Numbered from the stretch's first letter, positions 23,585-24,184 are shown. The stretch: DNA of 64,000 nt from an uncultured Trueperaceae bacterium (GCA_963799485.1 CAWCXJ010000001.1:1-64000), one strand, 5' to 3'. The notes: generated by a model not told the origin, from the sequence alone. Numbers and translations are program-made.

Positions 23585-23725
23585 CAGCGTAGCCCAACCT
23601 TGCAGATGCGAGCTTATTGCTCGGGTAACTGTTCGGGCTTAGGCTGAAGACAACAGCACGACGAGACTAGCTTTTTTACGGTCTTTAGAACCTAAGGGGC
23701 GACGCTCTGCCGTGCCGTGTCCCAT
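23585..23725 (-). ncRNA. Predicted bridge RNA (target-binding loop ~23655-23716, donor-binding loop ~23591-23639); ends approximate
   Basis: Two stem-internal loop-hairpin modules whose loop strands match the target site and the donor junction (see findings). Confidence 0.85.
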
Positions 23726-24184
23726 CCTCAACATACAAGGGGTCAAAAGGCGCAAGACCTCGGCTACAGCAGAGGTGGATTTAGCACCAAGATATATGTC
23801 ACCGTGGACGCTTTAGGCAACCCTTTACGCCTGCTCTTAACAGCCGGACAAGCCCACGAAGCGCCTTATGCAGCAGCGTTACTCGAAGGTTATGAAGCTG
23901 AGTTCGTGATGGGCGACAAAGCCTATAACGCTCAAGCTGTCCTCACAGCCATTGCTGAGATGAGTGCCGAAGCGGTCATTCCACCCAAAATCAACCGTAA
24001 GGAGACGCGCAACTATGACCATGAACTTTACCAAGAGCGTCACCTCGTTGAGTGCTTTTTTAACAAGCTCAAATACTATAGGCGCTGCTTCTCTCGTTTT
24101 GATAAGCTCGCCCGTAACTACCTTGGCTTCTTACACTTCGCTTCGGTACTCATCTGGCTGCGGTGAAATGTCAACACAACCCAG

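Follow-up and report, generated by a model that had tools for sequence, protein, structure and literature searches.

Does the left end of an IS110-group insertion sequence in an uncultured Trueperaceae bacterium encode a bridge RNA, and do the guides of that RNA match the DNA that the element interrupts and the ends that it joins? The locus lies within a stretch of 64,000 nucleotides (the window, in whose coordinates positions are given below), where an initial annotation had placed a compact two-loop RNA of the IS621 type on the minus strand. Bridge RNAs were first described in 2024, and Durrant et al. (2024, PMC11208160) predict them for 85.7% of the elements in the IS110 group. Our analysis indicates that, very probably, the left end holds a bridge RNA gene and the insertion sequence has been active recently.

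Results

The insertion sequence, its ends and its targets

The element comprises 173 nt of left end ahead of the ATG, a gene of 314 codons and a right end of 17 nt, its length being given with one copy of the CT core counted (Table 1). Its anatomy and boundaries, and the motif at its target, are read directly from the DNA. The host genome (3.66 Mb in 15 contigs) harbors four copies that are identical over all 1135 bp, with flanks that differ from copy to copy. All four show CCC-CT before TGTATG at the left and ACAGTTG-CT-TTTTT at the right, the target motif common to the four copies being CCC-CT-TTTTT. Uninterrupted paralogous IS5-like sites are collinear, base for base, with the flanks of the window copy when a single CT is counted. 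Thus, CT is the core, of which the target has one copy and the inserted element one at each junction. CT precedes TGTAT in all four copies and in 59 of the 60 homologues with a called left end, the exception (L024) having AT. The 10-mer target CCCCTTTTTT occurs at 11 unoccupied sites in the 3.66 Mb versus four occupied ones, and 4 of 15 such sites are thus occupied.

The window copy splits an IS5-family element of the host exactly in an A6G-GGG tract (22595-22604 and 23738-23745, read on the plus strand). This tract, the likely site of programmed frameshifting, separates the DUF4096 ORF from the DDE ORF, which is in the -1 frame; at this spot the paralogous IS5-like copies, all of them empty, have more G and one A fewer. 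The other three copies of the IS110-group element occupy chromosomal positions unrelated to this one, near genes of SDR, lumazine synthase and VanY. Specific targeting of the IS5-like frameshift tract by the element was rejected as a rule, because these three copies sit elsewhere and the paralogous IS5-like copies are uninterrupted.

Two other sequences were noted. A 32-bp fragment elsewhere in the genome (L006, G000 C12:16649-16680) consists of the first bases of the left junction (CCCCT and the start of the left end), with target-like GACCC before it and unrelated sequence after it, and is probably a deletion remnant. Within the window, a 96-residue ORF on the plus strand (25028-25318, start MERYSKGSHTLYHHRYHLVWITKYRY) resembles, by eye, TnpA of the IS200/IS605 type.

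The element is also found in metagenomes. Contigs from two sediment-metagenome runs carry it without differences, a marine run carries parts of it, and a hot-spring metagenome run contains a variant with 37 differences in 1145 bp. Three of these differences fall in the RNA, in the inner hairpin loop and in the linker between the modules, and none in guides or helices. In the contigs of four DNA runs, the element is collapsed to 22598-23742; over 22300-24050, these contigs contain neither a circle junction nor an empty site, rare forms being of a kind that contigs cannot show.

Recombinase gene

The encoded protein carries the Pfam domains DEDD_Tnp_IS110 (PF01548, 4.9e-26) and Transposase_20 (PF02371, 7.3e-18). 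Its residues 3 to 307 align with the IS621 transposase (PDB 8wt6; E 2.6e-41), which is a full-length homologue, as is the ISCro4 transposase (E 1.4e-40). In the alignment, residues D, E, D, D and S of the window protein stand opposite D11, E60, D102, D105 and S241 of IS621, named as catalytic by Hiraizumi et al. (PMC11208158). An alternative TTG start proposed by ORF calling, at 23597, falls within the RNA.

Table 1. Features of the element, its RNA and its surroundings, in window coordinates.
Feature	Position	Strand	Basis
IS110-group insertion sequence, 1135 bp	22603..23737	-	Four identical copies; collinear paralogous empty site
Left core dinucleotide CT, end of left target flank	23738..23739	-	Copies and homologues
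Left target TTGACCC, within interrupted IS5-like element	23740..23746	-	Sequence, copy comparison
Left donor ACAGTTG and right core copy CT	22603..22611	-	Sequence, end-calling in homologues
Right target flank TTTTTATGCG	22593..22602	-	Sequence, copy comparison
Interrupted IS5-family element, 5' part (DUF4096 ORF)	22196..22602	+	Pfam PF13340, E 1.1e-21
Interrupted IS5-family element, 3' part (DDE_Tnp_1 ORF, -1 frame)	23740..24166	+	Pfam PF01609, E 4e-11
Recombinase gene, 314 aa; ATG 23564, GGAGG ahead, stop 22622-22620	22620..23564	-	ORF, Pfam, homology
Predicted bridge RNA, ~139 nt	23585..23723	-	5' end inferred from the -10; 3' end set a few nt beyond the donor-loop stem
Target-binding loop module; outer stem 23717-23704 with 23666-23654, bulged A 23708	23654..23717	-	RNAalifold, pair counts
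Target-loop inner hairpin GGTT CTAAA GACC	23680..23692	-	Helix 2: 97.8% of cells paired, 3/4 pairs change on both sides
Donor-binding loop module; outer stem 23638-23635 with 23595-23592, inner hairpin 23623-23609	23591..23639	-	RNAalifold, pair counts
Left target guide	23694..23703	-	Register of the initial annotation 23703-23695; commonest family register 23702-23694
Right target guide AAAAAAG, 7 nt with core	23671..23677	-	Copies and family permutation test
Left donor guide ACAGTTACC, against right-end terminus ACAGTTG-CT	23624..23632	-	7/9
Right donor guide TGCAAG, pairing CT-TGTA of left end	23599..23604	-	5/6 and one G.T
Target-loop handshake guide C, complementary to donor position 7 (G at 22605)	23670	-	56/59 homologues
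Donor-loop handshake guide G, complementary to target position 7 (C at 23740)	23598	-	55/60 homologues
Candidate -10 hexamer TATGTT, left end	23730..23735	-	Hexamer of at least 4/6 here in 46/52 homologues
Candidate -35 hexamer TTGACA, right end, overlapping the stop codon	22618..22623	-	TTGACA/TTGACT at this distance in 38/52 homologues

A conserved two-module RNA scaffold

We performed a protein-guided scan, with one genome per species, which gave 79 loci at 51-60% identity over nearly the whole protein length. Most belong to Dehalococcoidia and other Chloroflexota, Nitrospira, Gemmatimonadales, Methylomirabilota/Rokubacteria and Deinococcus. The upstream regions of 67 loci were aligned with those of the window and of L005, a solo left end described below. 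The 12 loci left out were L063 (cut by a contig end), the duplicates L069, L072, L073, L091, L093 and L099, and L021, L050, L056, L058 and L096, omitted from the alignment (A1) for having no target loop by eye.

The RNAalifold consensus comprises two modules and four helices, each module being made of an outer stem, an internal loop and an inner hairpin. Standard pairs fill 96.2% of the 1673 helix cells of the homologue alignment, against 83.5% after shuffling, and 19 of the 25 pairs show compensatory change, being altered on both sides. The observed value was reached by none of 500 shuffles on any of five helix measures, and pairing falls to 28-46% when the partners are slid by 1-3 columns. 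As the homologues are related, the shuffle counts are not probabilities, and the stronger argument lies in the slid controls and the many types of pair. In the window itself, the pair 23704/23666 at the base of the target-loop stem is C.U, and the single-sequence fold (z -1.56) is not exceptional and is uninformative alone. No terminator was found after the donor loop.

A covariance model (R1) was built from 48 homologous left ends, the window being excluded. It matches the window at 23722-23583 over model positions 1-141 of 141, with 94.4 bits (E about 1.8e-20, from a shortened and rough calibration) and on the minus strand only, which bears out the bridge RNA proposed there. Among 31 loci outside the model, 26 have strong full matches upstream of the gene; the scores are 60-132 bits for 25 loci and for the contig-cut L063. 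The omission of loci by eye is borne out by R1: three of the 79 homologous loci (L021, L050 and L056) keep the donor loop only, and L058, L096 and L076 match weakly. Each of the three loci that keep only the donor loop, and thus have no target loop upstream of the gene, has a second, weak full-length R1 match nearby, on the other strand or downstream (L056 918-1071, minus; L050 907-1035, minus; L021 3006-3161, plus), which suggests nested or adjacent elements.

In the genome that the window comes from, R1 finds five matches, namely the four copies and the remnant L005 (G000 C6:714982-715142, minus strand). In L005 the left end of a related IS110 element stands alone, with 76% identity and a score of 101.5 bits. 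Its own left guide matches its own flank at 7 of 9 positions and its right guide is the same as that of the window. L005 has no recombinase gene; other DNA lies downstream, including an ORF that by eye resembles an IS1-type zinc-finger protein. Weaker R1 matches occur in five of 30 related genomes and, within the genus, in one of five, a patchy distribution that is expected of an insertion sequence.

A search of Rfam 15 over the whole window at gathering score gave no match, and hence none to a curated bridge-RNA family. At a lax E-value, the same search gave an antisense sX15 match and two chance matches, and nothing else. The sX15 match covers the full length of that family on the plus strand (23573-23731, 26.4 bits, E 0.059), antisense to the bridge RNA. 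It raises the alternative that the left end is mainly a leader or antisense-RNA control region of the transposase, like sX15, and not a guide. Both sX15 and its antisense partner asX7 were seen on Xanthomonas northern blots (PMC3300014), and the sole promoter-like site in 22500-23950 lies on the plus strand at 23477-23504, directed into the region. The score, however, is far under the sX15 gathering score of 55, and the 9/12 match of the promoter is within chance, with one such site found versus a mean of 0.5 in shuffles. Moreover, about 100 of the 1673 paired cells hold G.U or U.G pairs, as expected for the minus strand, whereas on its complement these cells would be unpaired, and R1 matches the minus strand alone. 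Leader control would also leave unexplained why the loop strands track the flanks of each element, and an antisense RNA could coexist with a guide. We consider it highly improbable that control of this kind is the main role of the left end, and favor the bridge RNA.

The sigma-70-like site at 23477-23504 is situated inside the recombinase gene on the opposite strand, and transcripts from it would run antisense through the bridge RNA.

Guides track the flanks and ends of each element

Ends were called by simple motif rules, the left terminus being sought as TGTATCTT-like and the right terminus as ACAGTTG-CT. Poor matches were dropped (9 of 69 at the left, 12 of 69 at the right), leaving 60 left and 57 right pairs, and alignment columns were then compared with the flanks. 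The left flank, from -7 to -3, is tracked by identity by five consecutive loop columns (z 4.8-9.4, 60 pairs), and five loop columns are complementary to positions 3-7 of the right flank (z 9-11, 57 pairs). The initial annotation had taken guides and flanks to correspond, and this covariation is observed in the family: every guide segment, like every helix, is supported across homologous elements. The guide strings and coordinates that it quoted are all correct on the minus strand, and its match counts hold (left target guide 6/9 with one wobble; for the donor guides, see Table 1).

The right target guide matches its own flank with a mean of 6.53 of 7, and perfectly in 38 of the 57 pairs, against a mean of 3.52 of 7 for permuted flanks and a maximum of 4.12 in 2000 permutations. 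That of the window matches 7/7 at the sites of all four copies. A right guide of 10 nt (23680-23671) had been proposed; its 7 nt from 23677 to 23671 are supported, while the three other bases belong to the scaffold. These three vary little or not at all, with complementarity to the flank in just 9, 14 and 13 of the 57 pairs, so that the right guide of the window is AAAAAAG.

The register of the left target guide varies within the family. Loop positions 1-9 are used by 40 of the 60 members, 13 use the register one base earlier that was first assigned to the window, 3 are one base later and 4 are ties. The window is among the ties, scoring equally in both registers, and the original assignment is therefore one of two. 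At the four occupied sites, the earlier register matches at 6, 8, 6 and 5 of 9 positions, and the commonest one at 6, 4, 6 and 5 of 9, plus wobbles. CCCCT is always matched at the four sites in the earlier register.

The donor guides follow the ends of their own element. Variants at positions 2-6 of the left donor guide are mirrored in the right end in 14 cases versus 1 unmirrored. Position 7 is mirrored in 0 of 5 cases, and the mismatch of the window, with A opposite G, is at this position. The same variant recurs in L070, whose donor likewise has G. All four GTAAG variants of the right donor guide occur with CTTATA left ends.

The handshake positions are the bases directly 3' of each right guide (Hiraizumi et al., PMC11208158), and in this family they behave like those of IS621. 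The target-loop handshake base is complementary to donor position 7 in 56 of 59 homologues, three A:T covariants included. For the donor-loop base, complementarity to target position 7 holds in 55 of 60, a count that none of 5000 permutations reaches. Target position 7 is C in all four copies, facing the donor-loop handshake base.

The ends of insertion sequences often carry repeats. The resemblance between loops and flanks might thus be a by-product of terminal or subterminal repeats, with recognition by protein on DNA, and the donor guides do repeat the element's own termini. The target guides, however, match sequence outside the element that varies among homologues, the left strand by identity and the right one by complementarity, as in the RNA-DNA scheme of IS621, and the helices show compensatory changes. 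Recognition by protein on DNA is therefore scarcely credible as the explanation, and recognition through guides of a bridge RNA is preferred.

A predicted promoter split between the two ends

The right-end TTGACA lies 13 nt from the right terminus, which together with CT and TG gives a 17-nt spacer to the left-end TATGTT, across the circle junction only. Both halves are present at the 17-nt spacing in 37 of the 52 homologues with both ends called. A promoter scan of 22500-23950 in the integrated state found no promoter-like site upstream on the minus strand. From this arrangement we infer that the two hexamers would form a promoter in the excised circle only, with transcription probably starting about 7 nt past the -10, near 23723 and 6 nt ahead of the conserved stem.

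The distance from the terminus to the target-loop stem is 21 nt in the window, of which 8 nt are TGTATGTT, the segment that holds the -10 hexamer. Ten of 60 family members, among them the window and L005, have a distance of 15-25 nt, and the remaining 50 have one of 33-95 nt. The short distance indicates that a 5' stem-loop of the IS621 type is absent in a minority of the family that includes the window element, which agrees with the initial proposal of a compact RNA possibly lacking it. The 5' stem-loop of bridge RNAs is structurally conserved among orthologues and helps binding; its deletion in IS621 lowers binding and slightly lowers recombination (PMC11208158).

Discussion

The Pfam domains of the protein, its homology to the IS621 and ISCro4 transposases, and guides that match their own target and donor junction together uphold the reading of this locus as an IS110 element with an IS621-type two-loop RNA. 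Some features of the RNA would also fit a decayed relic, descended from a bridge RNA and no longer guiding, with the four copies produced by other means or earlier. These are the C.U at the base of the target-loop stem, the missing 5' stem-loop, left-guide matches down to 4-5 of 9, and the lack of a circle junction or empty site in the contigs of the four runs, in which rare forms are invisible. The mismatch at position 7 of the left donor guide could be counted with them, yet L070 has the same variant facing the same donor base. Decay is further opposed by the identity of the four copies over their whole length, by an intact frame of 314 residues with aligned catalytic residues, and by an exact 7-nt right-guide match with a handshake-compatible C at all four sites. 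A relic is thus very unlikely, and we retain a functional bridge RNA as the reading of the locus.

For transcription, RNA ends, binding and catalysis, the anatomy of the element suggests the following course. By analogy with IS621, the element would leave its site as a circle in which the right end is joined to the left end. The circle junction would set the right-end TTGACA 17 nt from the left-end TATGTT, with transcription starting at about 23723. The RNA would then have no counterpart of the IS621 5' stem-loop, beginning right at the stem of the target loop, and would fold into two modules, in each of which a stem is followed by an internal loop and an inner hairpin. ACAGTT... and TGCAAG of the donor loop would hold the circle junction. 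The base after each 3' guide (C 23670 and G 23598) would pair with the other DNA after the first strand exchange, as the handshake, and the DEDD/Ser recombinase, seated on both modules, would exchange strands at the CT core. We lean slightly towards the view that this is a naturally minimal bridge RNA, for which about 139 nt without a 5' stem-loop, a 7-nt right guide and a tolerant left guide suffice for transposition in the host. A bolder addition to this proposal is that the opposite strand may give an sX15-like antisense RNA that tunes the guide.

The system is closely reminiscent of IS621 of E. coli (PMC11208160, PMC11208158, PDB 8wt6). Both belong to the IS110 group and have the RNA in the left end, with the target loop followed by the donor loop, either loop being a stem that carries an internal loop and an inner hairpin, and a left guide of 8-9 nt that reads as the top strand together with a right guide complementary to the top strand. 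They also share a CT core within the pairings, a single handshake base 3' of either right guide, promoter hexamers divided between right and left ends, and a DEDD and Ser recombinase. The IS621 RNA comprises a target-binding loop (nt 34-98), a linker and a donor-binding loop (nt 110-177); its left guide is 9 nt long, and each module has a bulged A and a conserved G. The window RNA has an invariant bulged A (23708) and a G (23703) ahead of the left guide, as in the IS621 module layout, and these are probably equivalent to A43 and G48 of IS621. The differences lie in the 5' stem-loop (nt 1-33 of IS621), which the window RNA lacks, in the right target guide (7 nt versus the 4 nt G77-G80 of IS621), and in the donor module, about 49 nt versus 68 nt, with a shorter donor-loop hairpin. 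The target (CCC-CT-TTTTT) and donor sequences also differ from those of IS621; a string search of the main text of PMC11208160 did not return the IS621 donor that the initial annotation quotes. Durrant et al. (PMC11208160) already describe right guides of greater length for some orthologues. The ISCro4/IS622 bridge recombinase (PDB 9t56; bioRxiv 10.1101/2025.05.14.653916) is a distant orthologue as compared by its protein alone.

The closest proteins found, at 51-60% identity, belong to IS110-family elements of Deinococcus plasmids and of Dehalococcoidia, Nitrospira and Gemmatimonadales genomes. Their RNA scaffold, termini (…ACAGTTG-CT and CT-TGTATCTT…) and predicted junction promoter are alike, whereas each has target guides of its own and 50 of 60 have room for a 5' stem-loop. 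The seekRNA or bridge RNA of the IS1111 group belongs to the same IS110 family and follows the same principle (PMC11208160). There, however, the RNA is in a long right end and the subterminal inverted repeats are long, whereas the window element has its RNA in the left end and only about 17 nt of right end beyond the stop codon.

A further relationship concerns Rfam family RF02234, sX15/asX7 of the Xanthomonas plasmid pXCV183 (Schmidtke et al. 2012, PMC3300014), which is the same RNA family at the DNA level. The window, at 26.4 bits on the strand antisense to the bridge RNA, does not reach the gathering score for sX15 membership. Conversely, R1 matches the sX15 locus of pXCV183 on the opposite strand with 63.2 bits (L100 1089-1228, minus; NC_007507 116388-116527). 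The bridge-RNA strand of pXCV183 is the asX7 strand and lies directly upstream of the start of a truncated IS110-type transposase. These sequence matches suggest that Rfam sX15 is an IS110 bridge RNA read from the reverse strand. A literature search on sX15 or asX7 with bridge RNA or IS110 found no link between them, and the Rfam annotation of sX15 is worth correcting. The 10 sX15 copies reported in Stenotrophomonas K279a fit an insertion sequence.

The novelty that the initial annotation implied is not supported, given how widely bridge RNAs are already predicted among IS110-group elements and given that each of them normally has its own target specificity. As a bridge RNA, that of the window element is ordinary though unusually compact. 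The element adds a well-delimited natural bridge-recombinase system, with exact ends, four independent natural targets and a defined core, whose guides and handshake bases are assigned by covariation, from a little-sampled clade in which the best relatives are 51-60% identical. The left guide tolerates 1-5 mismatches at real sites, which bears on the off-target rules of IS621 (bioRxiv 10.64898/2026.08.31.748434). The value of the system is practical more than conceptual, and lies in a natural bridge RNA that lacks a 5' stem-loop and has a 7-nt right guide.
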